A stretch of DNA of 60,291 nucleotides, filler included, from Asterionella formosa (lineage: Eukaryota), in the NCBI GenBank assembly GCA_002256025.1. It is 13 parts of 13 records of this genome, joined end to end, with 100 filler letters (N's around TTAATTAATTAA, not from the genome) between each part and the next. Parts side by side here need not be neighbours in the genome. Positions count along the whole stretch, not along the records: positions 1 to 4,555 come from NKIB01013458.1; 12 more parts are not named here. The stretch is one strand, 5' to 3'. A model generated the notes under the pieces. That model did no database searches and was not told where the DNA came from. It saw nothing but the letters and a program-made list of their open reading frames with translations. Position 1 is the first letter of the stretch, and the number at the start of each line of letters is the position of its first letter. A program made the position numbers and the translations under genes. Positions 1 to 47,424 of the stretch are shown one piece after another.

Positions 1-1193
1 CCAGCCCCACAAGCGTACATTCAAGAACTGCGACGATTACGATGAAAAAAGATTGACAATGTACAACTTGAGTTTTGTGGGGCGGCGAGCGGGCGAGAAT
101 AAATGACATGGTACCTGGTAAACATACAGGTACTTTGCGGGACTCCTTGCTGCTGAAGGAAAGGAATTTTCAATATTAGGCTGCACATATGATGATGATG
201 TATTGAAAATGTCACATGTACCAGGTAGACTACTGAGGATATGTGAACATGATGTAGAGAAAACTGGTAAATACCTTTGGGCAGTTGAAGGTTGATGAAG
301 TGGAAAAATTCGTCTCGTACATATGATGTGTTCTTTCATATTCACATATATGTGAACAGGTTGAATAAACAAATTATATAGATGGGCGTGGTACCTGTCG
401 TACCTTGATCCATTCTACTACGGGTAGCTAAGTGCTCCTTTTTCAGGTATGCTTCTACGGTGCACAACATTTCTGATTCTTGTAGACTCAATGATATACT
501 GCATTTTAACTGTAGTAGCTTGCCAGAGGCATAGTGGAAACCAAGTTCAACATGTAATTCACGCGGTGCAGCCTCGTGGTGTCGACTGTAATGTAGTAGT
601 ACCAGGACCAGTTATAGATGGCTTCAAGCCCAGTTATTGCATCGTTTTCCGACTAATTCTAGATTTATGCTAAAATCCCCACTTTCGCCCTTTGGCACGA
701 AATTAGTTAGTTCATTTAGTTAGCTACATGAGAATTAGATCATTTTTTACTTTAACATATAATAATTGAGATCTATCCATTTTAAAAGTGACAAGACTGG
801 TCAAAGTGGCTCAAAGCCATTGATTAAAATTTTTAACATACATGTAGTTAAATTTAAAGGTGACAGTTGGAAAATTCGATGTTTTTTGCAAGTGTTCTCG
901 CAGTAGTAGTAGTTGCATCGTTCTTAGACTGGTGGTGTTCCCATTTTCTCTTGTCAGTTCCATTGGCCAAAGATTCCTCGCAGTTTTTTCGCAGTTGTCT
1001 TTGCATCATTCTTAGACTGGTGGTCCTTGTTTTGAGATGCACATCATAGCTACAATTCAAACGAGATGACAATGCTGACAAGGACAACAACGACGATGAT
1101 TCAGGTGATGTGTGACCATGGAATATTTATGGTGCATGATCTTGCATCGTTCCCTGTGCATACGTACCAGCTAAGTAGTAGCTTTACCATGTT

Positions 1194-1428
1194 GGGGAAT
1201 GGCTTAGTGGTTAGCACACCCACCGTGGTGGCAGGTTCCATTCCTGCATTCTCCACCTGTCTTTTTCATGTAGTCCCTAGGGTTCTGGGGGGTGCGGCTG
1301 AAGAAAAGACAGGTCCCGTTATACTGTACAGACAAATAAAAAGGATACTAATTGTGTCCATCTATTTGGTGGGCCCGAGTGCAATTATTGGATAGCTTTA
1401 ATGTCCTAAAAAATTTCATTGACATTTT
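1194..1428 (+). mobile_element. tRNA-derived SINE, full-length copy 1
   Basis: Head 1194-1255 folds as an acceptor stem GGGGAAT/ATTCTCC-A, with an A-box-like TGGCTTAGTGG and a T-arm GCAGG-TTCCATT-CCTGC (B box). Flanked by a perfect 18-bp direct repeat TAGTAGCTTTACCATGTT at 1176-1193 and 1429-1446. Homologous copies at 21794-21891 and 45943-46176. Confidence 0.88.
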
Positions 1429-2575
1429 TAGTAGCTTTACCATGTTAATCTCAGAGGGAGGAATATTCTATGAAGGTTTCTTCATACAAACACATGACTG
1501 ATAAATCTCCAAAATTTTGAAATCGCCACGATCTATGATTTTCAATTTCTTCAAGAACTCTTGCTGAATCCTAGCAGCATCCCAGACTTAAGCTTTCTTC
1601 AACTTTTGTCTGGAATGCTGCCAAGATTTGCTAAACACTGCAATATCGTCACTGTGAACTTGCAACAAAGGGAATCGATTATTCTTTGGGTTGCGAAAGT
1701 TTTTCTACCATTTTGTTGCTCTGAGTGGGAAGAAGGGGAATCAGATATTCAGGTCTGTACTGCTGTGATAGAGCATGTCAAGGGACAAAGTGGTAACAAC
1801 ACAAAGGATGAGGCATTTCTTTAAGCTGGTCAAATGATTCAAAACACAGCCACCAATGTGCCCTTGATGTTGACACAACTTTCTGCAATGCAATAAATGA
1901 TTTAAAATAGTAGTAGACAAAAACAAAAACAACAACAACAAATACTACCCAATAACTCATTTGCAAAACCCATTTGAGTATGAGGATAATAATTTTAAGA
2001 TTAATAGCGAACTAATATCAATAATACTATTTTCTTTTACCAAGAATGTATATATTTATTGTAGTATTTTAATAAGAAACGAAACATACAGCAATGTAGA
2101 TTTTCTGAAAATGTTTGAATCATCTGTTGGAAAATGAGCCCAAGCATTGCCGTCATCGCCATTCACCAATCCTTTGTTACCATCAGTCAATGTGATTTGG
2201 AGCGCTCTGAAAGATATTGACTGTGAAACACTTCAATGACAGAAGCAAGTTCGCGGTTGAGAAAAATCATGCTCACGCGAACAATACAACAACAAAACCT
2301 TCACCAATTTGGACTGCTACTTTCATCATTTCGCATGAAACAAGCAGAGCTGACTGTTTACTTTCCAATACTCAACAATTCACTGATCCGTCAATAGTAA
2401 AGCATATCAAAAGGAAAGTTTACGCAATAACGAAAAACATTGTGGCTTCAAGAAATTGCGCCTTAGAAGGATGGATTATGTTTAAGGTAATGAAGCCGTC
2501 ATGTGGTACATGGATGACAATCATTGGGAGGACAACAAAAAAGATAAAGTAGACGCACATTTCCTTTCTTCTCAG

Positions 2576-2878
2576 TTGATTCAATAGCTCGTTTCGCTTG
2601 TTGGGAGCACTAGTGTTAACAAAAAAAATTGGTAACTGCTCTGGTCGTTGGACTTACTCACTTCTGTTGGAACATAACTGACGGGCACGTTTACCTTCTT
2701 TCAAAGTAAAGCTGACGAAGATGAGTTGATTCAATAGCTCATTTCGCTTGTTAGGGAGCACCAATGTGAAACAAAACAAAATTGGTAAAGTGCTCTTGTC
2801 GTTGGACCTATTCACTACTGCTGGAACATAAATGACGGACATGTTTACCTTCTTTCAAACTTAAGCTATCGAAAATGA
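2576..2878. repeat. Tandem duplication of a ~150-bp unit (2 diverged copies)
   Basis: GTTGATTCAATAGCTC..TTTCGCTTGTT..GTCGTTGGAC..GGAACATAA..GTTTACCTTCTTTCAAA occurs at ~2576 and again at ~2725. Confidence 0.85.
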
Positions 2879-3739
2879 ATCGCTAAGTTTTATTTGACAA
2901 AATTGGATACCTGAAATATACTTTTTCAATAACTGACTGACAATTTACTATTACAGACATATGCATCAGTTGCTTGGATTTGTGGTAAGAGAAGCAAGAG
3001 GATATGATGGAATCGCGTGATGTTGTGTCAGTGTAACATGACAAGCTAACAAGTCATATCTTCTCATTGTTACTGTAACTGCATAGCTAGGACAATAAAA
3101 CCAATCAAACAACGGAATAGTCGGCGAGTTCAGATTGACACTAACAGCAGGGAAAGAGATGCAACATAAGTAGGTACTGCCTGACAAATGATTCAGAATA
3201 GAAGAATAAATGAGCGAGACAGGAACATTATATATTGAGATGAGTGGAGAGAGAAATGTCTGGTAGCTGTAGAACCATGGATAACATTGCTAAATTTGAT
3301 AGTTAAATTACAATCCATATCAATCTATTTTGAACAATTTTTGTGATTAGAAGAATTATGATCATGTTTAAGATAGATATACTATGAAACAATTGACATG
3401 ATAGCATAGAGTTAAGCTTATTGTAGGATGCGTTGTAGTAATAATTTACATTTGGCGATCACAAGAAAATAAAATAAAATGAGAAGGTTTATGATGTTGA
3501 TAAGAAATGTTGTGGATCAGTTGATATACATTTTGTGATTATAATGATCTTATTGTCATTATATTCAAGTTTGGTAAAATATTAATGAATCATCATAGTT
3601 ACAGGATACCTTGATTGTAGTTTGATCCAAAAATTATCATGTATTACGAAAATCCTGTGCCACTTAGCATACAATACCCTTGATCCTATTTGCATGATAC
3701 TTTTTATTTGCAGATGGCCGCTTCTGGTCGAAATACTTC

Positions 3740-4125
3740 CAAGGTGAAGAAGTCAAGGCACACTTCGGAAGCCTTGAGTGTGGCTTTGCAGATGACTGGC
3801 CAGGAAAACTGGGTGACAACAAAACAATGGTGGACGCCAAATAGATTGTTTGAAGTCCTCTCGTCAGCAGTCACAGAAGTAAATGCTATGCTGGTATATA
3901 AACACTTCCGCAAAGATGAGGTTGATGGCATGCTCGGTTTTAAGAAGATGAAGAATCGCCTTGAAGGTCGACGAGATTGACAAAAAATGCTAAGCACAGA
4001 GTTTTCCAGCTACCTAAAGGCAAGAAAATTATTGGTAGAGATATATCAGCCTGTCGAGCCGGAAAGATTCCGTACTTTATATACCTGCACGGGTACCGGA
4101 ATGTCGATATGCCCGCTATATATAA
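3740..4125 (+). pseudogene. Degenerate piggyBac-like (DDE_Tnp_1_7-type) transposase C-terminal remnant
   Basis: Frame-broken peptides TKQWWTPNRLF..AVTEVNAMLVYKHF and RTLYTCTGTGMSICP resemble the W..R.F..L....VNA.L.Y motif and Cys-rich tail of piggyBac transposases. Confidence 0.4.
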
Positions 4126-4555
4126 CCAAGGATATTTATGACTGTACAAAGGGTATAAATATTACTTTGCCGGTATTTATGCAGCTTTCTATTGAAAAGG
4201 AGGCACTGCCCATCACTGATCGATAAAAACTTCTGAACATCACTCTTGCAATGCAGTCCACAGTCTGCAGCGCAAATTCGTAAAATCATAATACCATGAT
4301 AAGACCAACGGTGGACGATTCGCAAAACTCAGGATTAGTGGATGATTATTCCGACAATGACTGTTCAGACAATGGCATTGGGACAGTTCCCCAGAACCAT
4401 CGAATACCTGCGCTTCCCGTTCCCTCTATTCGATCGAGTTGTCAAAAAAGCTCAGAGGGATTGTCCAAAGGATCTTTACAAAGTGGTTTCAGAGGAATCT
4501 TCTCGGGCTTTAGCAAGAAGAGTAAGGAAGCGAGGAGTAACGAAGGGTCGCGTAT

Positions 4556-4655
4556 NNNNNNNNNNNNNNNNNNNNNNNNNNNNNNNNNNNNNNNNNNNNT
4601 TAATTAATTAANNNNNNNNNNNNNNNNNNNNNNNNNNNNNNNNNNNNNNNNNNNN
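4556..4655. other. Artificial 100-bp contig spacer (N-run, TTAATTAATTAA six-frame stop linker, N-run). The same spacer recurs at 9209-9308, 13862-13961, 18510-18609, 23158-23257, 27813-27912, 32456-32555, 37098-37197, 41738-41837, 46378-46477, 51017-51116 and 55655-55754
   Basis: Twelve identical spacers. The intervening contigs are 4537-4555 bp in nearly descending order, and genes are cut abruptly at the junctions. Confidence 0.99.
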
Positions 4656-5049
4656 CATGAAATGAATTGAAACAAGTGGAGCGAGGACCACCGGACAGAT
4701 GAGAACTTGATATGTGAGGTCCGAAAGAATACTTGACGAATATGCTACCAGTAGTACTACTGTTATGATCGGCACTTAAAACGTTAGTTGGTACCGCTAA
4801 TTATAGGATCAACAAAAGTAATAGAAAATTGTGGATATTTGTATCTGTATTATTTATTAGTCCGTAGTCATGCATTTCTGCTATATATTGGTACTATATA
4901 GTTGGATCAGTTTATAAAAAATGATACCGCGTATCCGGTGCATATTTTGTTTCGCTTGCATCATACAAATAATGATGGCTTTTTGCCTTCACCTTTTTTG
5001 CGTGTTTGCGAACACAAGCAGCATGCAACTTGCGTTGTGATGCTTTTTG

Positions 5050-5670
5050 TTGTCGGTTGATTGTTGTAGGTGCGATAGTTCGCATTCGTACTCAACCATA
5101 CGAATAGATCAACTCGTCTGTTGTTTATACACAGCACACATCAGATCATAGTCGTTTTTGGTCATTGATTTGTGTATGAATGTCTCGTCTGTTTGATCGT
5201 TCTTGTCATTGCCTTAGAAAAGGTCTCATTAACGGGTCGACAGTATGATGACATTTGTGTTTTGGTGGATTGTTGTAGATGAACATGCGAATGTTCGCAT
5301 TCATGCACAATCACACCAAAATAGCACAACCTGTTCAGTATCATCTGTCTTTGAAAGACATCAGAGTAGAATCAATGTTGGCCCTTGAGTTTGTTGTATT
5401 GTAGTCTTGTCATTGTAGCCATTGCTGTAGCAGTGAACTCGTTGATAGACACATATTGTTTGCAATTCGGCAGATTTGGTTGATTGTTGTATTTGTATTT
5501 GCGATTGTTCGCTTTCATGCACAATCATACTAATGTAGCTAATCTTGTTCTCTCATCTGTCTTTATAGGACATCAGATTAGAATCAATATTGGCCAATAA
5601 ATTTATTGTTATGTTGTCTAATCATTGTAGTCATTGCCATAGCAGTGGACTAGTTGACAGACATACATCA
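5050..5670. repeat. Degenerate tandem repeat, ~210-bp unit, 3 copies
   Basis: GATTGTTGTA..GTTCGC(A/T)TTC..CATCAGA..GTCATTG..GACA block recurs at ~5056, ~5267 and ~5478. Confidence 0.7.
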
Positions 5671-7738
5671 TTTTGCCATTGGCAAAGGTTTTCACCTTTT
5701 GCTCGAATGTGCCACAGGTATCATCATTTAAAGCTCACTTCATTTGGAGGCTATTAATGGATAGCAGCAGGTGTTAATTTTGCTACTGTAGCCTAGTCTT
5801 TTTGTTGCCTTCTTTGCAATATCCTAGGAAGAGGCCATGGTTTGTCATCGTCATCACTGCTACTACTACTTTACAAATTAAGGAAGAAGTCAGGGTCTTC
5901 TTCATATCCTTCTGCTATGCTGGAAGAAAAGTGCTACAGAGCCAAGCAAGTATCAATACTTCTTGGACCAAGGAAGATGAAAGGTAAGTATACAGATTGT
6001 TTATGTCTGCAAAAACCAATCATATTCCTATGATGCATCACAGGATTATGATCACCTGATCATATTTTTTTGTTATATAATTAAATAATTTTGATAAATG
6101 CCCTTGTAATTGAATTGGTAACCCTTTTGACTATGGATATTTAATTACAATATGTATTGTTTCTATTAGGATCCTTTACTTAAATTTCTTGATAGGATAA
6201 TGAACCAGCTTAAGTAATGTGGTTTGGTTCATCATCCTCTCCAGTCCTCATTCCAATTATTGCAAAACCGATAAAACAGCCATGTCGAGAGGAACAAGTG
6301 TTTGTGATAAAATCTTCATTTCTTGTTCAAGTCATCATATGTCTTTGATGAATCATCATCTACAGTGCACAGTATGTTTGTACGCAATCTGTTAAGATCT
6401 TGAAAAGAAATCCAATGAAAAAAAAGGCTCATCAAATCGCTCATCACACAACACAAATATTTCCGGTCTGTCACTGGAGCATCGATCAGTGTTACAACCT
6501 CAATCATAGCTAAACAACATTCATTATAGAACAGGACAATCTTCTTATAGTATCCCACCTGATTATGGTGTCTCCTATTCTTATGGCAAATATGCAACAG
6601 CAAAAGAGTATGTGCCATGTTATATCGCATAATCCTAGCTACTGTGCCTGCACTAATAAATCATTTTTTGGTGGTGACTTGTTAGAAGGATTATTTGGTG
6701 CAACTCCATTTGAGGTTCTTTATCAATAATATTTAAGTACATTTTGGAATCATTGTACAATTATCGGACTATCCCTGATGGTTTTTAAACAAAGAAAATC
6801 ACCAGATATTCCAGAGAACACGATGTCTACCGACATTTCACATAGGTATTATACAAACTGTTAGGGATAAAAAAAGAACGACCCTAAAAGCCATGCAGGA
6901 TACATAAGTACCGGTACTACTGTACGGAGTCTAAACTTGGTCGAGTTCGCGGAGTCATACAATGATTTTTTGATCACAGTTGTGATACCGATTTGTCAAT
7001 GGGTGACACACTACCTGGCTTGTACCGATATATCTTTAGTGCACTCACTGTATGAGGTTTTCCATGTACCATGTGGTAATTTCCAACTGCAAGTGCCGGT
7101 AGTTAATTGTCGTGCGCCATCGTCAACACCTCGCTGCATCCCTGATAGGACCGTACCAGGTTTTTAGTACCTGGTACCTGGTACCTGGTGTTTGAAATGT
7201 ATGTGTGGCGCTTCCTCCAGCTGGCTCCAGTCCTGCGCTGGAAAGAGGGGTCCAGACCTTGCTCATGCCGCTGCATCGTTTGCTTACCTATTACCGGTAT
7301 TCTAATTCAAATAATGTCTATTTCCGTATAGACATTCCACAGACTAGATCTAGTCCATGGACAGAAGTCGACATCAACAACAGCCCAACAGACACATTCT
7401 GACAACGTGCCCCTGGTACCAGTTTTGAGCATGAATGGAGGACTTTTTGCAAATCATGATGCCGTAATGTGAAACATCCTAGTTTAACACGCGCTGATAC
7501 GACATCATAGGTTTACATGAAAAATCAGACTGCATGTCAGAATAGCTATTTATTATGAATAGCCAAAGGCAGGAAAAGCAGTTTCCGCTAGAGTAAAAGT
7601 GATGACAAAATATGACGTACTCTAAATTTATATGATTTTTAAGACTCAGCAATGCAAAATACAACGGACAAGCGCAAAGCAAAGCTTGATATATTGGCAG
7701 GATTTATCATCGTCACAGCCGTCAAATCAATAAAATAA

Positions 7739-9208
7739 ATGATGAGTATAATAAATATCTTTTCGAAAAAAGGATTGCGCAACAATATTAACTCGATATT
7801 CGATCGGTGCGAGTCCATGAAGATATTGCAAAACCACTTTCCGACAAGGCTATGTAGAACTACAAGGCCTCCGAATGGTGCAAGTCACATCAGTAGCATC
7901 AATCGGAAACAAAACCATGATGAAAAACTATCAGGACCTCTTGCAAATAAGACAGAGGACACAGCCCTTCATGTGGCTATTTTGACCTGGTACTTGCTCT
8001 TCGGGGCGTTGCATGAGGTCTCCCATGTCCTCGCTGCTGCGGCCATTGGAATCGGAAACGAAGTCTCTGTCAAAGATATCCTTCTCGCTGTCCTTGGACG
8101 AGGAGTCATCATTCCTGGACTCTACAATGCTGATCCTGTCTCGGTGATGATCATTCGTCATAGCGGATGGATATCAAGTATCCTGTTGGGTCTCGTTGTC
8201 CATTTGATCCATTCAAGGACACACAGTGCAACCAATAATTGGATCAACTCAGCTCGCTCTGCTGCTTGGATTACAGCAGTCGAGGCGATAAGTACCGATC
8301 TTCTTGGCTTTGGCCTGTACGGCACCTTGAGCTCGTCCACTTTCCTTTGTGGCAACTTTGGAATTATCCTCATCAACCCACTCTGGACTGAAAGCTCCCA
8401 AAGTAGTAAACAGGTCCTTGATTTACTTGCCAAGATGATTAGTGTCACCATGATGCGAGGTGCACAGACTGGTGGAGTGATTGCTTGGGCAAAGAATGAC
8501 AACAATGAGATCTATGGGATTCGAAGTAGAGTTGTCAACGGCAAGCGGACAGATTTATCTAAAGGCGTCAAAGACAAAGTTAAGCGAGACACATTTACCC
8601 ACGGCAAGATTAAGGGAGGTATCCAAGGCTTCTATGGTCACACTCGCTTTGCTACTTCTTCAAAGGCTACTTTTGACGGGACACACCCTCATCAATGGAC
8701 ACCTCCAACAGTCAGACGAGTGTATCTCAGGAATGCCATGAATTCCAACAGTTGTCCAAAACCAAGCAGCTTGAAGGTAGAGAATTACATCTGTCACAAT
8801 GGTGACTTTGATTTCTTTCGTGTTAACGGTATTTACTATGATCTCAACAGCATCCAAGATTGGTTGGTCAAGGCGACCGGTGCTCCTATGCCGACTTCGG
8901 TTGACAGCTGCGCCATTGCTGGCATGATTGACATGATACGTACTTCGGGATGCTTCGCTTTGAGTGCTCGTTTTGCGTTGCTTCTAGGCATGTCAGGAAG
9001 TACCATTTCTGCAAATGATGATATTCCGTCATGGCCAGCTTTTGAGGAAGTTGGTACAGCTTTCGAGGTTGCACTTGAAGTATTCTGTGCGAAACACCTC
9101 ATTTCACCTGCAATGATAGGAGACAGTGAGGATCTCCGCCAAGGTCTCACCCTTGAAGCATCTCGAACCATCGAACCAGCATGGTACTACTCACATGAAG
9201 CCTTCACG
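7739..9208 (+). CDS. Class II (Ntn) glutamine amidotransferase-domain protein (GlmS/GFAT-like) with a hydrophobic HExxH-containing N-terminal extension; 3'-truncated by the contig end, start codon uncertain
   Basis: GAT-II motifs CGNFG, RG(AQ)TGG, GHTRFATS, THPH and HNGDF in the correct order. Upstream LHEVSH lies in a hydrophobic helix. Confidence 0.75.
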
Positions 9209-9308
9209 NNNNNNNNNNNNNNNNNNNNNNNNNNNNNNNNNNNNNNNNNNNNTTAATTAATTAANNNNNNNNNNNNNNNNNNNNNNNNNNNNNNNNNNNN
9301 NNNNNNNN

Positions 9309-9602
9309 CTTCTGGCACCATTTACATATCCAAACGGTCCACTCTGACATGCCATAATCAAACTTGCATAGGCAACCGTATTATTTCGTTTCGCACGCTT
9401 CTCATCGTTGTCGCTCGGGACAATCTTCACTCCAGCTGAATCTCTCTCACCTGGTGATACTTCATCTCCATTTAGTATTCCTTCAAAACCTTTGTAGCAG
9501 GCATAGGCCACAAATTTCGCTTTCCAAACATGCCACTTGGCTGGCATCGGTACCATCAAATGTTGGCAACCGCACTCCTGACGATTCGTCATCAATTCCC
9601 AT
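9309..9602 (-). pseudogene. Ty1/Copia gag N-terminus (element B), frameshifted and cut by the contig end
   Basis: ATG at 9602 gives MGIDDESSGVRLPTFDGTDAS; after a 1-nt shift it reads KWHVWKAKFVAYA..GFEGILNG..AYASLIMAC, a typical Copia gag start (F.G...W..W). Confidence 0.75.
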
Positions 9603-9782
9603 CTTGAGTACCCTTTCAAACCTATCCGCTTTAAAGCGTGTTGAAATGGTCCGTACTCCTTCCCGTGGGCTGGGTCTCTCTTCACGTAGACTCTTACGTG
9701 CTCGTAGTACTACCTAGTACCACTTACTTTCTCTCTTGTCTCTGCTTCTAGCCTTCCTGATAGATAGACTAATTGACCTTCC

Positions 9783-10044
9783 TGTCAATTAACACACTGT
9801 TTCCTCGGTTGATAATCTAAAACTCAAATTAAATTATAAGCTAAACTAAATGTTTCCTTTCCATGCATCTTTGCTTCCCGCAAAGTCGTTCTAAGACTCT
9901 CTTCGAGTTTCCACTTAACATTTCCATAGAAATCTTCAATCTTTGATCTTGTTAGACAGCTGATTGACGTGGCAATGCAATATTCGACTCGTTCGATTAC
10001 AATAGAGTCCACAATCCTTGTGACTCGGGCTAATATTCTTGACA
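9783..10044 (-). mobile_element. Probable 5' LTR of Copia element B
   Basis: 262-bp segment bounded by TGTCAA...TTGACA inverted termini, ~180 bp upstream of the gag ATG. Only one copy is visible. Confidence 0.55.
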
Positions 10045-10117
10045 GTAGGTACCAAACAGCAGTCAGTCAGTCAGTCAGATTAATTATATAACCGTACATA
10101 AATGTCTTGTATGTATC

Positions 10118-10543
10118 TGTTAAAGTATTACCTTTTTGATATATATAGATCTATATCGTTAGACAAAGAAGACTATAGATAGAGCCGTTCGTTTCTCTTT
10201 CCGTTTCTATATTCTTATTGTGAGTTTACTAATCTAGTTTAGGTTGTTCTGTTTGAACAAACAAACGAACTATTCTCCAAATGCTGTTTGCATTTCTAGA
10301 AACATACAATCATAGATAGACCCATGTCTATCTCACACTTACTGACCATAGGTTTTTAACCATGATCATTCATTTCAAACTATCGGTCTTCCGAAATAGC
10401 TTACATTGTCCGGCTCATTATAGTCGGAGTAACAAGGTATAATGTGTGGTTGATGAGAGCTTGGTACATCAAAGTGGACTCAATCGAATCATTTGACTCG
10501 TTTGACTCCGAGTCCTAACTACGTAGATGAGCTCACTTTAACA
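10118..10543 (-). mobile_element. 3' LTR of Copia element A (426 bp)
   Basis: TGTTAAAGT...ACTTTAACA 9-bp inverted termini, immediately preceded on the minus strand by the polypurine tract GGAACAAGGAGAG (10544-10556). Partial copies at 21915 and 50163. Confidence 0.92.
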
Positions 10544-13500
10544 CTCTCCTTGTTCCAACAATCCATCATCCCGTTTTGGATCGCGTATCCGTGCATGTTC
10601 ATAATCTTGTCCGTGACGTTTTTAGTTAGGACATCTGCAGGATTCTTTTCCGCATTGACATAGTCAACCTTAATCGTTCCGTTTTCGACTTGTTCTCGTA
10701 CATAGTGGTATCTTACGTCGATGTCTTTTGTGCGTGCCCCAACCTGATGATTTTTCGTTAAATAAATCGCACCGGTATTGTCCTCACCCATTAGACTAGG
10801 CATCGCGATAGTTGTTATTTCGCCCAGTAGATTCGTTGCGAAGACAGTTTCCTTTGAGCCGTTACTGAGTGCGACATATTCACACTCGGAGCTTGATTGC
10901 GTTACAATATCCTGTCCTTTTGATATCCAGTGAATTAGGGCGCACCCTCCGATCGTGCCTAAATAACCGCTGACACTCTTTCGTGTATCAGGATTAGAGG
11001 CGAAGGCGCTATCCACGACATCTTGAATATGTAGCTCGTTGGGCGCACGCAGTTTCATTCTGCATGCAATGTCCCCATCTAGACACAAATACCCGAGTAG
11101 GCATTCCAATGCTTGCCAGTGCGTTTCGCCGGGGTTGTCGAGGTGCTCTGACAATTCACGACATGCGTTGGCGCATACTGGCGATATTTTCTTCACGAAG
11201 TAAAGTATCTTTCCAACGAGGGAGCGATATTCCTTATTCTTGATCGTCTCTCCTCGGTTCTTACTTAGGACCGTTCCCGGGAATCCCGGCGTTGAGGCTT
11301 TCTTTGGTTCCTTTCCAAATATAGTCGTGTAGTCATTAATCATATCTTTGACAAAATCCTCCATTTCGGACTGTAGATAGCGTCCGTTCTCGTCTTCACC
11401 CCATTCGTACCATACTACTCCTAGATGCTTGCGTAGCTGGCCAAGCTCTTTAACGTTGAAGTATTGTTTCAATGCCAACTTGAACTTCTTGACGTCGGCT
11501 TGGGTGCCGGTTACTGCGAGGTCATCTACGTAGGTGCATAGCAGTAGGGTAAGGATGCCTTCTCGTTTTTCGTAGAACACACAGGGGTCGACACGGCTTT
11601 GCTTGAGTCCCATATCGAGTAGTCAGTCTCGGAGTTTCTTGAACCATTGCCATGCAGCTTGTACCGTACCGTAAATTGCCTTATCCAGTCGGATGCAGTT
11701 GTCAGTCAAAGTCGTTTCATTTTCGTAGTGGAAGTCAGCGATTCCATCTGGCCATTCTATGTAGATTTCTTCGTCGAGGTCGGCTTCGAGGAATGCCGCT
11801 TCGATGTCCACAATTTCACAAACAAAATCTTTTCTGTGTAGGGTGAGCGCAAACACAATACGTAGGCCTGTATCCGTAACAACAGGTGCGAATGAGTCTG
11901 TGAAGTCGACACCTGGTATCTGCACGTAGCCTTTTACCACGATGCGGCCCTTGTAGCGCGTAGTGTTGTCGTGCTCATTCTTTTTTTTAAATACCCATTT
12001 TGCTCCAAGTGGCTTTCGTCCATTTAGATTCTTACGAGGATGTAGTTTCCACACTTTGCGGGACTAGAAGTTTTCAATCTCTGCTTTGATTGCCTTGGTC
12101 CATTCGTCTTTTTCGTTACTTAGTAGTGCCTGCTTGTAGCTCTTGGTTCCAGTGGGTCAGAAGCTAGGCTCGTTGAATGTGCTTCCTCGTTAGGTTCGTG
12201 CTCTTCGAGGTTTTCATTCGTGTCGTCATCCAAAATAAGCGTGCGTGCTGCGGATGATTGCTGACGTGTACCTGCTGCACGAGTAGGTGTAGGCGAGGTC
12301 ACAAGGCCTGTTGATAGCCTATTCATTTCTCGATCTAGCTTTGTAGATTTCGTAGCATAATTCGTACGATGCTCGTTCGTACTCATACCACCTGCGACGG
12401 AATCTGCAAAGCTCACTCCCTTGGGAGTACTGGGATCGTCTTGTTTCGTTGGTAGTAGTGTAGTAGCCCCTTGCTCGTCAGGAGGCATTGCGTTGGTAGG
12501 TTTAGTAGGAGTGTCGAATTCCTCGTCTATACCGGATCCATCTGTGGTGAATTCGTCCATGTCCGCTGTGGGTTTGGCATTTCCATGCCAGTCGGCCCAT
12601 TTAAGGTCTCTTGTGTTGAAGACCTTTTTCGTTGTAACGTTGTACATGCGGTAGGTATCACCGGCGTGGTCATGGCTGTATCCAAGCATGACACATTTGA
12701 CACTTTTTGGGGTTAGTTTCTGCCTTGGCGTCCGAATCGTGACCCACCCCACCCTGCCAAACTGAATCAGGTGAGGATAAATCTTAGGCTGAAAGCCATA
12801 GAAAAGCCAATCGGGGCATTTTCCCGTATTCGAGTTAGCGACAGAGTTCGTTAGTCGCGTGTGCATGTGGACACTCTCTGCCCACAGTAGCCCCTGGTAT
12901 TCGTCTGACAATTTTGCGCTGAACATGGAGGCACATGCTCGGTCTCGTATCGTCACAAATTTTCGTTCCACGACTCCGTTCTGTTGAGGTGTATGGGGGG
13001 CAGTATACTCAATCTGAATACCCTGCGTGGTGCAGACGATACTTAGACTGGTCATGTTTTCACCGGCGTTGTCACAGCGTAGGAAGCGTACTACATAGCC
13101 CGCTGACTTGAGTGTAGTCAGTAGGGCATCCGCGATGCTCGCCAAAAGACTCTTCTTGTTAACAAAATAACTCCATGCCTTGCCTGTGTACTGATCCACA
13201 AATAGAATCCAGTAGTTGCTTCCAATTAGAGATTTCTTGTAGGGACCTGAAATGTCCACGTACAATCGTTCAGCAGGAGTAGAGGCCTTGAGGGTCGTGA
13301 CTTTAGGTACCGCTTTGGCCTTTGCCTAAGCTAGTGCGCAGCCTTCACACGACTGAATCTTGCCCGTAGGTTCAATACCGAGGGACTTAAGCGTTTCGCG
13401 AAGGGATGCCTTGCTGATGTGGCCATATTTGTCGTGGGTCTCGTTGATGTCAATTTGCGTTGGTTTCTTGGTAGATTTTGCCGTAGGAAGTTGCGTCACT

Positions 13501-13861
13501 GACTTGGTATTCGTTGGAGTAGGATCAGGTGTATGGTTTGTTGTCGAGTCGTGGATAGACAAGACCGTTTCGGATTGTAGGGTACGTTTTCCCTTGAAGT
13601 AGTAAAGGACGCCTTGATCCTCACAAGAAAAGGTTAGTTCGTTGTCGTACCCTTCCTTATGTAGACTCAACTCAGAACCCTTCATGCGTGCCTCGCACCC
13701 TCCGTTCTTGAAAAATTGCCCGATGCTGACGATGTTCTTGTGGAAGTGTGGAGTGTAGAGTACCTTGCGTAGTAACATGGAGCACGTCTTGTTGGTAATC
13801 AGAATATCACCTCGTTTCGTGCATACCACCTCTTTACCGTCACCGACAATGACCGAGACGT
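10519..13861 (-). pseudogene. Ty1/Copia pol of element A (protease, GAG-pre-integrase, integrase, RT, RNase H), disrupted
   Basis: VIVGDG/LRKVLYTP..NIVS, H...GH...CEGC, YVDISGP..CDNAGEN..NGVVERK, LGAKWVFK..YKGRIVVKGY, YVDDL, SECEYVA..EDNTGA..NPADVLTK in Copia order. Stops at 13326 and 11623 and a frameshift near 12120. Confidence 0.96.
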
Positions 13862-17845: not shown

Positions 17846-20800
17846 TCCTGCAACTGTATGTAGAGGCAGAATAATAAGTAGTGCACAGCATTGAGAGAAA
17901 ATTATGCACCCTTTACTCCCTATAGATATGTCATCAATCATGTTGTCTAAACTACAAAACGTTGTTCCTGTAAATAGACCGAAGCATTGTCGTTTAAACT
18001 TGAAGTTGTGTAAGCAAGACATGCAGACAAACACATTTAAACTAGTATTCCTAAACGTAGATTGAGCCCACAATATACCATGGGGAATATAGATCAAGAA
18101 ATTAAATAGTTTATCACAATCTTTTGAATATATGGCTTTTGATCATAATCACAAAGATAGAGGCTTTTTTGAGAAACAATAGGAATCTCCCTATATTGTA
18201 AATATGGATTATATATAAATATATATTAATGCAATAGTCCCTACTCCAATGAGTAATATATAAACAGGGATACCTACCCTATCAACATCAATTTCATCGC
18301 CAGATCCCATTCTTTTCCCACTATCCATGATCCACAAAGAGGATCAACAAGTTCATAATAACTTCACAGAGGGATACTAAGTATCCACAAGGACCCGATT
18401 TATTGTTGAGTTTGCCTCTTTTGAGGACTTTCCACCGAAAAATGGGTATAACTCCTCAGCTACAAAAATCATTGAGGCAGATTGAGCAACGAAATGACAA
18501 GCTTGAACANNNNNNNNNNNNNNNNNNNNNNNNNNNNNNNNNNNNNNNNNNNNTTAATTAATTAANNNNNNNNNNNNNNNNNNNNNNNNNNNNNNNNNNN
18601 NNNNNNNNNGATGCGGTTGATTGTTGGATTGCTTGTCTTCTCGAGGTATTCATGTAGTCGCATCGTCCATATTTCGTCGGACGCACGATGATATCGATAC
18701 ATCTGATGTTGGTAGCAAGTTTTTGTTCCGGTCATGTAAGTAATGATGCTTAACGGATATTCTACCAGTACCGGCAGTCATCTAGTCTACATACGTACGT
18801 GGTACTAAAAACAACCATGCATGGTTTAAGCTATGCTTTAACGCTTACTTTGAACACGTTATAATATTATCTCTGTAGACTCGGTATTATTTTTACGAGA
18901 CCTGAAATGTTGAATTGTATCGTTCACATATTCATTGATTTTACGTACCGTATGCCCGATTTCGTCCTCACAAATATAGTTCTCACTCTATCTTGCCTGC
19001 CTTTGCTCTATTCGGGCTTGCAATAGGCAACGTTCGTCTTTCTTTGATTCCATCGTCTGCTGCTTGTTATGCTAGTTGAAGCGGATCGGTGAGTACAACA
19101 GTGAAATACTGAATATGGATTGTAGATCGTATTTATCGACTTTCCGATTTGATTGCTTCCGTGGTTTGTTTTGATCGCTTCCATCGTTGTTTGTCGTTAC
19201 GCACTGTCGTTTTGTTTCGATTGTACATATATACATGAGAACCAATGCATTTATCAATGACTACTCATTGAAGATGTGGTATTGCGCCCCTACAAGCAGC
19301 TTGTGCCGCCTTCCTACTAGGCGGTCGGAGGTTCCCCTTCACGCTGAGGCTGAGACGATCGGTAGCACAATGAAATAATTGCCTTGAAAGAGGGGAGTAC
19401 GAATAGGCTATAAAACTTATTGACCTTTTTACATATATGTAAATACATATTTTGCATGGTAGAAAGAGCATCAAAACACACGAAAATGATTGTAACATAC
19501 AATATCAATAAAAATTGACATTTTATTTGGAGGAACCAAAGTATGATATGCAAAGTAAAAAGTAGCATCATGTGAGAAATAAATAAAATTATTTTGGGCT
19601 GGAAATGAAGTAAAAAGTATTAGTTTCCATGTAGATGTGTGAATTTGCTAGTACTTATACAGGCAGGGCAGCATTGACTTTCCATCAGACAATTGAAGGA
19701 CGAAATAGCACAAAAAAGAAATAGAAACCCTGAAACCAATTGAGATCTGTATTGTACTAGAGAGTACTAGATGATTTGGTAGTTGGAACCATTCACATAG
19801 CTGTATTGCTAGTAGAATCCAAGCAGCAGTCGTCCATCTGCTGCCCAAACCAACAAATAATCCTGATCAAATGATTCTGTGCTTGATAGCCAGGCCACTC
19901 CTGTATCAGCTCCTCCCCAAATTGAATCAGCCATTATTATTTAATATCATTGAACGTAGCTTGTGATACGAACTCTGAGTAAAAAATTAGCAAACCGAGT
20001 TACAAGAACAAGAAAAGCATTTGTTTGGCGGCAATATTGACATACTGCCTATACAAATCAACAAATAAGAACAACGATAATACATCTGCAAAGATTAGGC
20101 ATTGATCAATACATTTTCCCTTGTTTAGATAGATACAATCGAGCCAGAAATACAGTACGGAATGACGAAAAACGACGGAAGCGAACAGAAAAGAGAATAA
20201 AAGCAATCAAATCGCAAATCAGAAAAATAGCATGATCTTCATGCCACATTCTGTGTTTCACTGTTATACTCACCGAGCCGCTCTAACTAGCATAACAAAC
20301 AGCAGATATTGGGTTCAATTGAAAGTCAAAAGGTTCCTGTGGTTGCAAGCCCGAATTGAGCAACTACATGCAGGATTGAGTGAGCATTATAATTTTGATT
20401 ATGAAATGGGGCATACATAAATCGATGAATATATGAGAAATCTAATTTAATATCCTGGTTTGATAAAGATATAAAAATGATTTGTATAGCGCATTCTTGT
20501 ATTCTATTTCTAGAGTTGCCGTCTTTGCGCTCCATGGACCAGCATTTAAGGTGGGGCTGTCGAAAGGTATGGGTTGTAGTCAATTCCTCATGTGGAAGTA
20601 GTTTAAAAAATTGTGGTAGCTTCATTCTTGGGTCATTTTCTTATGACTGCACTTCTCGTGTCAGCCGGAGAATTGAATGATGAGTGTGTATTGGTTTAAA
20701 GATTTCCATTTTGACCAAACTTCTGATAGTGGATCTATTTGAGGTATCCATAACAAATGATGATTCCAGGGATTCCAACTCATTGTTTTTGTCTTTATCT

Positions 20801-21793: not shown

Positions 21794-21891
21794 AAAAAAT
21801 TGTCAATTAATTTTTATTGTAGATTGAAGCTATCCAATAATTGCATTCGGGCCCATCAAATAGATGGACACAATTAGTACCGGTTTTATTT
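21794..21891 (-). mobile_element. tRNA-derived SINE, 5'-truncated copy 2
   Basis: Reverse complement AATAAAACCGGTACTAATTGTGTCCATCTATTTGATGGGCCCGAATGCAATTATTGGATAGCTT..ATTGACAATTTTT matches 1335-1428. No clear TSD. Confidence 0.85.
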
Positions 21892-21914
21892 TTCGTCCCT
21901 GGCATGGGTACCCA

Positions 21915-22215
21915 TATTAAAGTATTACCTTTTGATAGATCTATATCGTTAGACAAAGAAGACTATAGATAGAGACAGTCGTTTCTCTTTCAGTTTCTAT
22001 ATTCTTATTGTGAGTTTACTAATCTGGTTTTAGGTTGTTCTGTTTAAACAAACAAACGAACTATTCTCCAAATGCTGTTTGCATTTCTAGAAACACAAAA
22101 TCATAGATAGACCCATGTCTATCTCACACTTGCTGATCATAGGTATTTAACCATGATCATTCATTTTCAAAACTATGGGTCTTCCGAAATAGCTTATATC
22201 GTCCGGCTCATTATA
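21915..22215 (-). mobile_element. Partial copy of the Copia A LTR
   Basis: Closely similar to 10118 to ~10421; the terminal TG reads TA. Confidence 0.92.
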
Positions 22216-40628: not shown

Positions 40629-42429
40629 CGTGATACTTATTTGTTAACGGCGAAATGATGCACTGATGCCAAAAAAATAAACGCGGAGGAAGGAGTACAT
40701 GCTAATTAACTAAGAATGGTGAATGCCTGAGCGAGTTTCAAATTGGTCCAACGAGGATGATGCTTCTTCCCTTTCAAACGGTACAAGTAAAAACTGGTTT
40801 AGCTACATAAGCTACCTGGTACTGGTACCAGGTATCTGGTACAAAGTACCCTGGTACCAGATCTTGTTGTCGTGCTTAGTAACTTACCTGGTACCTGGTA
40901 CCGTAAATGCAAGCGCTGGTACTAGTACCAGATACAATCATAGACGCTGACGGTGCCATTGTGGTATACCGCGGCTGTAGCCGCTTTGCCTTGGACTTCC
41001 GTTTACTACACAACTCTCATGTCGTGGGCTAAGTAGACACCTAGTGTAGGTGGTAACGCTGTTTGATGGTGGTAATGGCGGGTTTATGCTGTGTTCCACT
41101 TGATGAGATAAACGAGTCCGAAAACGATGAGTGAGAAACATCGGAAGAAAATCAAATTACACTTGTTGAGGCAACTAGGCTGACATTTTATGATCTTCAT
41201 ATTCAATATTGATTAAAATGTTATACTCTAAATAAATATAGCTTGCTTTCACCCTTTTCTGCAGTTGAACTCTTGTTTCAGTGCAATTCTGTACACAATC
41301 CTAATTTAAATGCTGTATGAATGATAGACTAGTTTGCACCGTAGCGATGAAGCGATTTTGAACTGACTATTACAATATGCATCGTCCTCTAATGCTCTGG
41401 AGACAACCATCACAACTATGCTGGTCAATTGTTTTCCAATGCAAGCTTGCAGTGATGAGTGTCAAGTCCACTTCTGCCACAACAACCACAGCAAACAAAT
41501 TAAATAGTTGTCTTGACAAATTGTTGCAGGAATTCATCAGTCCTTCAAAGCCACATGCAACCTTCACAATAGTCAAATGTCTGCATTTTCCAGGTTGGTA
41601 GTATAGCCTTGCTAAAACTTCATCACCAAGTTTCACAAAAAATTTAGTTGAGCCTCTCAACAAATGCCTATAGTACTTTATGTTACTCCTTTCTTAATTT
41701 GGAAAATCAGTCATTGAGATACCCCTCGAGCACAATANNNNNNNNNNNNNNNNNNNNNNNNNNNNNNNNNNNNNNNNNNNNTTAATTAATTAANNNNNNN
41801 NNNNNNNNNNNNNNNNNNNNNNNNNNNNNNNNNNNNNACTGGATAAAGTATATTTTGCTGGATTAGGATGCATTCACAGGATTGGAGACCCTGGTCCTGA
41901 TTAAACAGCTGTGTGAAAGAGCAAGAATCCTTCGCCGTGCGGATCCCGATGGATTCTGCTGTCGTTTATTTTGATATTCTTCCGATGTGCAAAGCGCAAT
42001 AGAAGCCAAATGTCTGCAGGTCTCAGCTAATAATGCATATGAGCAGATTTTTTTTCTGTCTGTGATGATGATGTTGTTGCTTGTCGCTTATGATATCTTC
42101 TCAGTACACCAACAATGAGATGCGGTACCAGTACCCTGGAACCATCATCAGATGCCGCTATATCACATACCAGTAGATGCATTATGTTGAAATTTATGGC
42201 GCTTTATCCTAGCGCGCTCCAGTAGTACTTCTGCTGAAGGCAAGACATGCCCGAGGTGGTCTCTTGCCTGCGAGCATGGTACCTGGTACCACGTACCTGG
42301 TTGACCTGGTATGTTGAAATTTATGGCTCCTCCTCTAGCGCGCTCCAGTCCTGCCCTGGAATGGACCGGTTAAGATCTTTCTCGCACTGCTAGTTTGCAT
42401 ATTATTCTGCTACCTATATAAATACATTA

Positions 42430-42526: not shown

Positions 42527-42629
42527 TTTACGCTGTTCTGTACTCCATACATACTACAGTACCAGGGTACCGGTACATAATATGTACAATATGCATAGAC
42601 CAAGGCAGGGTTGTTTAAACCAATCATTT

Positions 42630-43132
42630 GCAGTGTTGAAAATAATGTCAGCTGGGGTACATCCATCACACAAACTAGCCAAGAAAGCTTTCCATTCTTC
42701 AGCCTTATCAATGTCTACATTCCCAGACTCTCCACAAATAGCATAGGATTTGACATTGTGTCTTTTCTTCCATTTTTCAAGCCAGCCATAAGATGCCTTA
42801 CAATTATGATCTGCATCGAATGCTTTGGCAATCAATAAAGCCTTGCTTTGCAGGATGGGTCCACTAATTGGATATCCAGTTGCGCAAGCAGTGCAAAACC
42901 ATCTCCACAATACTGTGTTGATTTCTGTACCACTATTAAGGTGAGCCATTTTCATTGATCGCATCGATTTTCCTTCCGTCAGTAAGTCCTCCTGCTTTTT
43001 CTTTGCTTTTTGAACAGTTCCAATGCTTATGCCAAGTTTAAAAGCAACTTCTCTAACACTATCCCCTTCACCAAGAAGCTTTATTGCCGCTAACTTTGCA
43101 TCAATGGAAACACTTTTACGCTTTAACTTCAT
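42630..43132 (-). pseudogene. Pogo/Tigger transposase N-terminal half (CENP-B-type HTH domains); DDE domain missing
   Basis: KRKSVSIDAKL..SVREVAFKLGISIGTV, LWRWF..GYPISGPILQSKA, ASYGWLEKWKKRH..GESGNVD; ends at DIIFN, just before the expected DET motif. Confidence 0.88.
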
Positions 43133-43550
43133 TTCCGATATGCTCTTCACAACTCCTTCAGTTCCCAATGGCGATGATGTCTGAGTCTTGGAGATTGTAA
43201 GACGAAGTGAAAGAATTGAATCAAATGTACAAGTAACGGTCAACCTTCCTTTCAGTAAAGTATAACTAAAAATTATTATAAAAGGTTCATGAACAGGTAC
43301 TAATGTCACGAGTGGTGATACTATGTACCAGGTACCACTATATCATTGCTAAGCAAGATGATGTGGTAGGTATACTGCTGACGCTTCTATGACTGTGCTT
43401 GCATAAGCATGTATTTTTGTTATGCATAAACATGTAAAATGATGCTCCCAGTAGTACTGAAGATTTTCAGTCCACAGCAGTGATTTGAGATGATCAAAAC
43501 ATGCAAAACAAGGAAAAAACTACTGGCTCAAACTGAGTGCAGACTGTCCG

Positions 43551-44741: not shown

Positions 44742-45942
44742 AATTTCCCCTTTCAATTGGGAGTCAGTATCATCTGGACTCTCAAGTGATGTTGCTATAA
44801 ATGAGAAATTTGCTCTCTTTGTCAATGCATTTGACAACGCATTGCAGATTAGAGAAAAGCTAAAATTTTAAAGGTTAGTGTTGCATAATAAGGTTGCAGT
44901 GCTTTGTACTATGTACTGCATGACACATTATTGAATATACACGTATATACCGGTATTCAGTATTTATTGACGAAAAAGCGATACTTGGACATTTCGTTTC
45001 ATTCATTTCTATTCATACCGCTGCTCACAAATCGATCCCTCTTCTCTATTTTGATTTTGCCTTTTTGCCCAAACAATGGCATTACGAACCTTTAACTGGT
45101 GCTCGGTATGCAACTATAAATTTCTGGAAGAACAAATCTCCCTCTGACTTTCACAATCGAAACTGCAACAATCGACAATTTTATGATTTTGGTTTGTGCC
45201 ATCACTGCTTGGAAGAACACCGCATTTCTGGAATTTGCAATCAAACTATGTATTGTGGTGGTAAACTATCAAGTGATTTAAATGAAACAGGAATGTAAGG
45301 TGTCTCTTCCTCATTTCCCAACGTTCTTATTTTTGATAGTTTGCATACGGCAGAGTCTCTTTCACAATTAGATGACCAGAATTTGTTATTTCCATTCTAT
45401 GACGAAAGTATCTCATTGACTTCAAATACATCAAGGCAAGGTGGAGAGGAAACAGAATTATCAGAAATTATTGGGTTGGATAATGATACTATGCATTATC
45501 CTGAGTACCAAGATCGAAGTGGGTTCATTCCCAAGGAATCCTCGACCTCTTCAATTTCAATTTCCCAAAAACATCTACTATACATGCATCCAATCGAATT
45601 AGAACTCATGTTATTCCTGAACGAGAACCATCTACCACCAATGTACTTCGATCATCTTATGATATGGTTATTGTATAACCCACAGATGAACTATATTGAA
45701 TGAAAAATATCCCACAGCAAAGGTGGGTTTGACCTTTCAATGGAATACAACTCTACATTGTGTTTCCTTGGCTATAGCATAGTATGTCTCATACAAGAAG
45801 TGGTTGACAGTCAAATTGTTATTCACAAAAATCGTTTCTAATTGTAAGATGAATATCATGATATTAACAATTGATAAAGAGCATCTTTGCTATCATATGT
45901 TGTGTCACCCTCATGACAGGTTATTGTGCACAATGCAATGAT

Positions 45943-46176
45943 GAAATGAAATTAAAAATCTTACAGTATGGCAAAGCTATCCAATAATTGTGCTCGTGCC
46001 CACATTTTGAATGGAAACAATTAATACCGGTTTTATTCATGCATTTGTACGGTACAATGGGACTTGTCTTTTGTCAGCCACACCCCCAGAACTCTAGGGA
46101 CTACATGGAAAAGACAGGTGGAGAATGCAGGAAGTGAACCCGCCAACACAGAAAGTGTGCTAATGACCCATTCCCC
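45943..46176 (-). mobile_element. tRNA-derived SINE, full-length copy 3
   Basis: Minus strand starts GGGGAATGG..GCGGGTTCACTTCCTGCATTCTCCACCTGTCTTTTCCATGTAGTCCCTAG and is colinear with copy 1. Perfect 18-bp TSD TGTGCACAATGCAATGAT at 45925-45942 and 46177-46194. Confidence 0.88.
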
Positions 46177-47424
46177 TGTGCACAATGCAATGATATATAT
46201 TGCAAAAGGTGGGGAATGGCTTAAAATTTAAGTATGTTCCCTTTGAGGGTATGTTGTGGGGTTTGATTCCCAAATTTTTCGATTCCCTTCTGACCAGCAT
46301 CCTGCATGGTCTTGTCCGGTGGGAAGGAGAACATAGGGTGCCCCCCTACAAGGAGCGTGTGCTGCTGCAAGCAGCCANNNNNNNNNNNNNNNNNNNNNNN
46401 NNNNNNNNNNNNNNNNNNNNNTTAATTAATTAANNNNNNNNNNNNNNNNNNNNNNNNNNNNNNNNNNNNNNNNNNNNTCGTGGAAAAAAATTTTAGCGTA
46501 TGGTCTAAATACTGATCCTCAACAATAGGGGTTACACCTTTTGCAATGTGAAACACTCAATTAAACATTTTTGTACTTTGCATTTTGTTTAGCCTTCTTA
46601 CCAAATAGGTTCAGATATTTTGAAAGTCCAATCCTCCCAAGTCTATTTTTTCTAGGTCCCTCCTTCGCCAGTTCTACATCACCCACATGCACTAGATAAT
46701 TTGTCTCTGTTGACAGGTCAAAGTATATCTTGAATGTATGTGTTGCATTCAAGAGTTCACCAATATGTGACATTGACATTGCTTCTTACCCCCTACAAGC
46801 ACCAGCTTGTGCTGGCTCCTCTAAGAACACTGTGGCTAAGATGATCAATTTTTAAGAAAGGTGGTTGGGGAATCACCTAAGCACAGGCCTTGTCTCAAGG
46901 TAGCACAATGAATATACTTGCCTTGAAAAAGGGGAGTAGGAATGGGCTGTAAAACAAATTATCATTTCATTCTACTTCTCTGATGCAAATGTTGCAGCTA
47001 ACATGCAATCACTTACTTCTGTACACTTAAGTTGCGCAGCATACAAACAATGGTAGCAGGATGGACGAGGGGAGCTATCTTAAAATGCAACAACAGTGCT
47101 CAGAAATAAATTTCTCCCAGAAAAACTAAATGTTCTTGTTAGCTTATTGACTGTGACGTAGGACCTCAAAAATATAAAGAAAAATGCAAAATATTTTTAA
47201 TAGACTAGACTACCGGCACTATTTTTACAAATACAATAGTATGATTCCTACATGGGAATTAATTAGTTTTTATAGCGATTGTGGACTCAATTAAAATGTA
47301 CCCTATGGTGTGGTGACTTGGTGGTGGAAACAACAATATGACGATGACAATCAAATGGTGATCCAACTATTCTAAACAGATAAATAGTGAATCATAAATC
47401 AATTTTGTTTTGGGCCTGATCTCT

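Follow-up and report, generated by a model that had tools for sequence, protein, structure and literature searches.

A 60,291-nt stretch of DNA (the window), assembled from 13 unrelated pieces, each about 4.6 kb long, with spacers of the form N44-TTAATTAATTAA-N44 between them and a G+C content of 41%, very probably carries members of a family of tRNA-derived short interspersed elements (SINEs; SINE2, non-autonomous retroposons) from a freshwater diatom. The repeat unit is about 235 nt long and consists of a head of about 62 nt derived from a tRNA, possibly tRNA-Ala, a body of about 95 nt with a conserved long hairpin, and an AT-rich tail of about 75 nt that ends in a T run. It has sharp ends and a high copy number, lies between target-site duplications, is lacking from related copies of the DNA that flanks it, and shares its tail with a long interspersed element (LINE) in the same window. 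The features concerned are listed below in order of position.

1176-1193, + strand: 5' target-site duplication of SINE copy 1, 18 nt, TAGTAGCTTTACCATGTT, a perfect direct repeat with 1429-1446
1194-1428, + strand: SINE copy 1, full length, 235 nt (profile match, E 6.6e-80)
1194-1255, + strand: tRNA-like head, acceptor stem GGGGAAT/ATTCTCC with G3:U70, shortened anticodon arm, discriminator A (Rfam RF00005)
1200-1210, + strand: A-box-like motif TGGCTTAGTGG, read from the sequence
1234-1244, + strand: B-box-like motif GGTTCCATTCC, read from the sequence; its counterpart in the metagenome copy L022 is GGTTCGATTCC
1255-1314, + strand: body hairpin with perfect 11-nt arms ACCTGTCTTTT/AAAAGACAGGT at 1255-1265 and 1304-1314 (repeat finder, consensus fold)
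1351-1428, + strand: 3' tail resembling a LINE 3' untranslated region (UTR) and ending in T5; profile positions 158-229 match 48459-48525
1429-1446, + strand: 3' target-site duplication of copy 1, 18 nt, TAGTAGCTTTACCATGTT (repeat finder)
21796-21894, - strand: SINE copy 3, the 3' part of about 99 nt only, profile positions 138-234 (profile match, E 5.8e-26)
45925-45942, - strand: 3' target-site duplication of copy 2, 18 nt, ATCATTGCATTGTGCACA on the - strand (repeat finder)
45943-46176, - strand: SINE copy 2, full length, D loop partly deleted (profile match, E 1.5e-68)
46177-46194, - strand: 5' target-site duplication of copy 2, 18 nt (repeat finder)
47412-47424, + strand: 5' target-site duplication of the LINE fragment, GGGCCTGATCTCT, 17 nt at most if the preceding TTTT is counted
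47425-48537, + strand: 5'-truncated LINE fragment, the C-terminal part of about 320 codons in two frames plus the 3' UTR (protein relatives)
48451-48537, + strand: LINE 3' UTR, 87 nt, ending in T6 and resembling the SINE tail (profile match, shuffle test)
48538-48550, + strand: 3' target-site duplication of the LINE fragment, GGGCCTGATCTCT, a direct repeat of 47412-47424

Copies, target-site duplications and ends of the element

The window was searched with a profile built from five copies of the SINE, and the E values of 7e-80, 1.5e-68 and 6e-26 returned for the three window copies exclude chance. The three lie within about 59 kb, each on a different and unrelated piece, and show identities to copy 1 of 79.5% (copy 2) and 85.9% (copy 3). 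All three had been noticed in a first-pass annotation of this DNA and all are real, but the coordinates given there for copy 3 (21794-21891) are corrected here to 21796-21894. The same annotation had described a perfect 18-nt direct repeat particular to each full-length copy, and the repeat finder returned exactly such repeats abutting both of them (2/2). With an 18-nt length seen in just two copies, and 13-17 nt at the LINE fragment, a fixed duplication length of 18 nt is not established. The unit has no terminal inverted repeats, the sole inverted repeat inside it being the internal hairpin (repeat finder, both full-length copies), and open reading frames (ORFs) of at least 80 aa overlapping it gave no Pfam match. 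Although copy 1 and copy 2 are 20% different, each of them is bounded by 36 unmutated duplication nucleotides, which suggests several diverged source lineages and not great age.

Two further copies came from metagenomes. L022 is full length and starts 2 nt from a contig end, while L038 comprises a copy with an internal head deletion (L038b) and, adjoining it, the initial 89 nt of a more diverged unit (L038a); both loci are cut by contig ends. The diverged unit (L038 202-294, - strand) lies directly upstream of the SINE copy, is 76% identical to copy 1 and starts GGTGAAT; it may represent a second subfamily or a nested insertion. A search with a 19-mer from the head/body junction gave three chance matches in prokaryote genomes and none in viral contigs.

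The ends and abundance of the element were read from Logan contigs of four sequencing runs (X1, X4, X6 and X8) from four studies, aligned to positions 900-1750 at 80% likeness (5526, 621, 685 and 573 contigs, respectively). Summed contig depth jumped at 1190 and dropped at 1422. Within the SINE it amounted to 307,506-1,478,325 (X1), 2,159-13,550 (X4), 936-4,916 (X6) and 713-3,669 (X8), against 426-958, 20.6, 5.5 and 4.2 for unique-flank contigs, that is, those matching the flank with 0-4 differences. The element thus stands at about 100 to 3000 times its unique flank in every run, a ratio which, because summed depth is not equal to copy number, is taken only as indicating hundreds or more copies. 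The high-copy family predicted earlier from three occurrences is thereby borne out.

In each of the four runs, 28-33 contigs depart from the reference before 1194 (agreement of 0.39-0.42 beyond that point), and 14-38 depart behind 1429 into unlike sequence (agreement of about 0.4). As the contig flanks are unrelated beyond both ends, positions 1194 and 1428 are the limits of the unit, which does not belong to any longer repeat; the first-pass annotation had named inclusion in a longer long terminal repeat (LTR) or DNA element as something that would overturn its reading, and nothing of the kind was found at either end.

The DNA around copy 1 (900-1160 and 1567-1682) is itself repeated, at depths of about 10-100 times those of unique contigs and as several diverged paralogues, and the ORFs within it gave no Pfam match. 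Contigs from diverged copies of this flank repeat join 1166 to 1431 (4/4 runs), 1162 to 1435 (2/4) and 1144 to 1432 (3/4), with 11-30 unlike letters in between; at the first of these joints, 11 letters replace exactly 11 letters of the reference. Such copies are colinear with the reference, carry the 18-mer once and have no SINE, the sides of their joints being only 27-35 nt long.

Two small observations concern the insertion sites. The 8-mer TAGCTTTA is common to the target duplication of copy 1 (1179-1186 and 1432-1439) and to the SINE tail (1393-1400), and the target of copy 2 likewise resembles a nearby part of the tail, which may reflect microhomology with the target or be due to chance. 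On the + strand at 46211-46223, 34 nt upstream of copy 2 and in opposite orientation to it, the SINE head recurs with its opening 13 nt (GGGGAATGGCTTA), a 14-nt match with an E value of 0.16 that may be a remnant or a chance occurrence.

The tRNA-like head and the tail shared with a LINE

The head of copy 1 aligns end to end with the Rfam tRNA model RF00005 (1194-1255 against model positions 1-71; 24.8 bits, E 0.0043 in a 321-nt search), and the alignment preserves the acceptor stem, the T arm (GCAGG-TTCCATT-CCTGC) and the greater part of the D arm. The head of L022 reaches 30.0 bits and passes the 29-bit gathering score of this model; its minimum-energy fold is a miniature cloverleaf with a hairpin of 4 bp and a 4-nt loop at the anticodon position. 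A consensus fold of the three full-length copies recovered the seven acceptor pairs, the five T-stem pairs and the mini-hairpin. G3:U70 is kept in all three of these copies when aligned, and an A follows the acceptor stem; in the diverged unit L038a, position 3 is a T. The earlier description of a 62-nt head that retains the acceptor stem with G3:U70, an A box and a T arm/B box is upheld. The anticodon arm is shortened: 7 nt of copy 1 stand against 15 model positions, and the arm as a whole is reduced to about 14 nt. Together with the perfect 18-nt duplications at two copies, the end-to-end match also sustains its principal proposal, a tRNA-headed SINE with individual target-site duplications.

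The consensus of the A box is TRGCNNAGTGG and that of the B box is GGTTCGANNCC. As putative promoter boxes, TGGCTTAGTGG fits the former and GGTTCCATTCC fits the latter with one mismatch. G3:U70 is the identity rule of tRNA-Ala, and the combination of G3:U70, A73 and a GGGG start would be consistent with a tRNA-Ala source, with no anticodon left. Behind the head, a T5 run at 1262-1266 falls within the 5' arm of the body hairpin and is a potential stop for RNA polymerase III (Pol III). An Rfam search of the window at gathering thresholds returned no match; matches to Plastid-ycf2, snoRNAs and mascRNA inside the SINE lay far below their gathering scores and were rejected.

At the other end of the unit, the SINE profile has a single further match in the window, at 48459-48525 on the + strand (E 3e-4), to the last 70 or so model positions. 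This match sits in the 87-nt stretch between the stop of the LINE ORF and a T6 run, on the same strand as the ORF. The likeness of the tails to this UTR was compared with that of 1000 shuffles per SINE copy, as follows.

L038b tail: identity 36/45; shuffles as good 0/1000
Copy 1 tail (positions 179-227): identity 38/50; shuffles as good 0/1000
L022 tail: identity 18/20; shuffles as good 1/1000
Copy 3 tail: identity 35/50; shuffles as good 12/1000
Copy 2 tail: identity 16/20; shuffles as good 163/1000

The LINE fragment has boundaries of its own. The 13-mer GGGCCTGATCTCT has exactly two matches in the window, with 0.01 expected by chance, and both are at the junctions of the fragment: one where protein homology begins (about 47425) and one just past the terminal T run (48537). 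What the two 13-mers bracket is thus a single LINE insertion, truncated at its 5' end and with a target duplication particular to it, and the stretch resembling the SINE is the 3' end proper to this LINE. The LINE of 47425-48537 is the likely partner of the SINE, and target-primed reverse transcription, which the first-pass annotation had put forward as the mode of insertion, gains from a LINE fragment that shares the SINE 3' tail and has its own target duplication.

The ORF remnant of the LINE lies in two frames, P0042 (47398-47994) and P0043 (48091-48447). A word-indexed search for longer relatives of P0042 gave none; a later, exhaustive search of a representative protein library gave 289 at E≤1e-3. 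The long ones measure 1560-2034 aa, with the matching part near their C-terminus. P0043 matches 17 of the 150 P0042 relatives listed (E<0.01), carrying them on to the C-terminus, and the last residues of P0043 are also those of one relative; the natural stop is therefore at 48448-48450, and 48451-48537 is the 3' UTR. A BLASTP comparison of P0043 with the relative P0102 was not significant, and the continuity of P0042 and P0043 came from closer relatives.

The character of the LINE was read from these long relatives. Exo_endo_phos scored above its Pfam cut-off in one of five (30.7 bits), RVT_1 below its cut-off in two of five (22.6 and 17.3 bits), and there were weak matches to zf-RVT and RVT_3. 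A reverse transcriptase (RT)-like block ending in F/YVDD was seen in five of seven, with an RNase-H-like block also present, and a CX2CX8-9HX3C knuckle likewise in five of seven. The N-terminal region of P0192 matches P0102 (E 3e-7). A profile search of PDB sequences gave an R2 protein as its best match (E 0.04, also 0.08), which is not significant. The relatives P0102, P0115, P0153 and P0192 belong to a large protein family (289 representatives at E≤1e-3) that is nearly invisible to RVT_1 and to PDB searches, and this LINE-like family may be a poorly catalogued non-LTR lineage.

Proposed cycle and competing explanations

A cycle may be proposed in which Pol III would start at the first G of the SINE head and the RNA would end at the terminal T run. 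The LINE protein would then recognise the 3' tail that both elements share, its endonuclease would nick the target, and the SINE RNA would be copied in place by target-primed reverse transcription; a staggered second nick would leave the target-site duplication of 13-18 nt. We infer that the SINE is currently active. Taken further, the two elements could be the first structurally defined and recently active SINE/LINE pair of a diatom, with a tRNA-Ala-derived SINE of several lineages and at least hundreds of copies, driven by a very divergent LINE, perhaps of an undescribed clade. As a whole this extended proposal is tentative and, on present evidence, rather doubtful. If it is true, the conserved T run behind the head implies an unusual route to the full-length template RNA.

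A number of results weigh against the SINE reading or against parts of it. At the head, the 24.8 bits of copy 1 fall short of the 29-bit gathering score, the head of copy 2 (D loop partly lost) has no Rfam tRNA match, and ARAGORN called no tRNA in the window, nor in any of the SINE heads. Compared with a tRNA, the A and B boxes stand closer together by about 10 nt, and in all four copies that cover the region a run of 4-6 T follows about 10 nt behind the head, where Pol III would be expected to terminate without reaching the body and tail. At the tail, the likeness to the UTR rests on one LINE 3' end and, copy by copy, is not significant for copy 2 (163/1000) and weak for copy 3 (12/1000). The window LINE fragment is a C-terminal part only, without RT or endonuclease, and its assignment leans on relatives, of which 10 of the 12 scanned had no Pfam match at E≤0.001 and three long ones had no match in PDB sequence searches. 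Copy 3 has no detectable target duplication, and its 5' end lies 22 nt from an LTR-like repeat with three occurrences in the window, so it does not serve as an unambiguous example of 5' truncation; interruption of this copy by the LTR-like repeat was considered and rejected, the far side having no SINE head. The metagenome scan with a 17-mer from the tail gave 78 loci with just two true copies (L022 and L038), the other 76 being rejected as matching merely 19-35 nt around the seed. Finally, the SINE-lacking sites are paralogous, with short joint sides (27-35 nt), and are not orthologous empty alleles.

The points about transcription lead to one alternative, in which the element is the same retroposon, but its full-length RNA does not come from Pol III and the internal boxes. 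The RNA would arise by read-through or within neighbouring Pol II transcripts, the boxes would be relics, and the 5' end at the first G would be cut by RNase P in front of the tRNA-like fold. Such a route would accommodate the T run found behind the head in 4/4 copies, the shortened A-to-B distance, and the fact that a cloverleaf-like fold has been kept. A Pol III unit would, however, be in keeping with the uniform start at the first G and with the T run at the end, and many SINEs tolerate internal T runs. We consider this route unlikely.

A second alternative, that the element is a non-autonomous LINE derivative whose tRNA-like front arose by chance, draws on the sub-threshold head of copy 1, the unmatched head of copy 2, the empty ARAGORN result and the loss of the anticodon. 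It must contend with a tRNA model match from end to end and an L022 head that passes the gathering score, and with a seven-pair acceptor stem, a T stem of 5 bp whose loop is 7 nt long (TTCGATT/TTCCATT), and both boxes, all in the right order; moreover, the available LINE sequence shares only its last 70 nt or so with the SINE. An origin of this kind is very improbable. That the unit is a miniature inverted-repeat transposable element, a solo LTR or part of some larger element, as its short, non-coding and abundant sequence and flanking direct repeats might suggest, can hardly be entertained, since it lacks terminal inverted repeats, starts with GGGG and ends with TTTTT where a solo LTR has TG...CA termini, carries 18-nt duplications that far exceed those of LTR integrases (4-6 nt for a solo LTR) or of cut-and-paste DNA transposons (short and of fixed length), has unrelated flanks beyond both ends in all four runs, and occurs in one copy as its 3' part only.

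Relation to known elements, host and other repeats

As a tRNA-derived SINE, then, the element matches a known class, in which the 3' tail corresponds to that of a LINE and which has been outlined in general terms (PMC7245038). Like members of this class, it joins a body and a partner-LINE tail to a tRNA head that has A and B boxes, and it likewise shows variable duplications, high copy number and 3'-only copies. It departs from them in that its anticodon arm is a hairpin of 4-5 bp closed by a loop of 4-6 nt, a T run immediately follows the head, the tail ends in T instead of A or simple repeats, and the host is a diatom. So-called 'stringent' SINE/LINE pairs were reportedly described by Okada and colleagues, the Repbase class being SINE2. 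Some plant SINEs, such as Au and p-SINE1, have tRNA-related heads, lengths of about 100-350 nt, 3' ends rich in T and duplications measuring roughly 10-20 nt; the likeness is one of description, and their hosts belong to an unrelated lineage.

Three or four diatom species are on record as having SINEs, with automated annotation as the source for Phaeodactylum tricornutum (PMC5859163), Cyclotella cryptica (PMC7466962) and Skeletonema costatum (cited in PMC8147415). These share the host group and class of the present element and are compared with it by description only. In their passages on repeats, the reports give counts or genome fractions and describe no head, tail, partner or duplication (PMC5859163, PMC7466962, PMC8147415), and SINE roles in diatoms are referred to as poorly understood (PMC7466962, PMC8147415). 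No structural description of a diatom SINE or SINE/LINE pair was found in the main texts of open-access papers and preprints. In another stramenopile lineage, short retroposons of Phytophthora infestans have been reported as SINEs (PMC3429519). The comparison with the diatom element is by description and not by sequence. The SINEs of P. infestans are tRNA-related.

Non-LTR retrotransposons of the I, Tad and plant-L1-like types encode an endonuclease, an RT, an RNase H and a C-terminal CCHC knuckle. Relatives of the window LINE follow the same order (endonuclease, RT with F/YVDD, RNase-H-like block, CX2CX8HX3C), and the window fragment itself, like endonuclease-type LINEs, is 5'-truncated, has a duplication of 13-17 nt and has no LTR. 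Unlike those types, the RT of its relatives falls under the RVT_1 cut-off (22.6 and 17.3 bits) and has no PDB sequence match. RTE-like LINEs have been noted for Thalassiosira (PMC2806351). The relatives of the window LINE are unlike these in having an RNase-H-like block and a knuckle, neither of which RTE-like LINEs are known to have.

Genome size in diatoms is described as varying widely, mostly through repeats, of which a large share is still 'unclassified' (PMC12044402). A family with defined ends, head, tail and candidate partner would shift part of this share into a known class. It would also serve as a source of presence/absence markers in comparing strains of a common freshwater diatom, and would draw attention to a highly divergent group of LINEs, one nearly missed by standard domain models. 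The mechanism itself is textbook, so the value of the family is descriptive rather than conceptual.

That the DNA is from a diatom, which had been called probable, is corroborated by the window ORF at 58612-60291. It has 41 homologues at E≤1e-10, seven of which carry an organism name, and all seven are from diatoms: Fragilaria crotonensis, Ditylum, Thalassiosira (three), Seminavis and Cylindrotheca. The nearest named homologue is that of F. crotonensis, at 47% identity. When positions 900-1750 were queried against public sequencing runs, 24 runs were listed, and part of the stretch was present in 20 of them, from 15 studies; these 20 are labelled as algae, as freshwater, lake or riverine metagenomes, or carry no label. 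One of the matching runs may itself be the source of the window, and runs with small word shares were excluded as habitat evidence. The host appears to be a freshwater species.

Several other repeats and elements were seen in the window. At 10120-13861 (- strand) lies an LTR retrotransposon of the Copia type that contains RVT_2 and integrase ORFs, and its LTR-like end (10120-10422) recurs at 21917-22215 (91.5% identical) and 50163-50351 (96%). DNA transposons are also present, as the ORF at 42554-43342 (- strand) has Tc5/pogo-type transposase DNA-binding domains (HTH_Tnp_Tc5, E 8e-15). A pair of inverted repeats of about 355 nt, 73.5% identical and about 800 nt apart, lies at 18924-19277 and 20082-20436, and a further repeat pair at 42308-42425 and 58101-58216. 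Tandem diverged units (72-83% identical) at 51117-51953 encode leucine-rich repeats.

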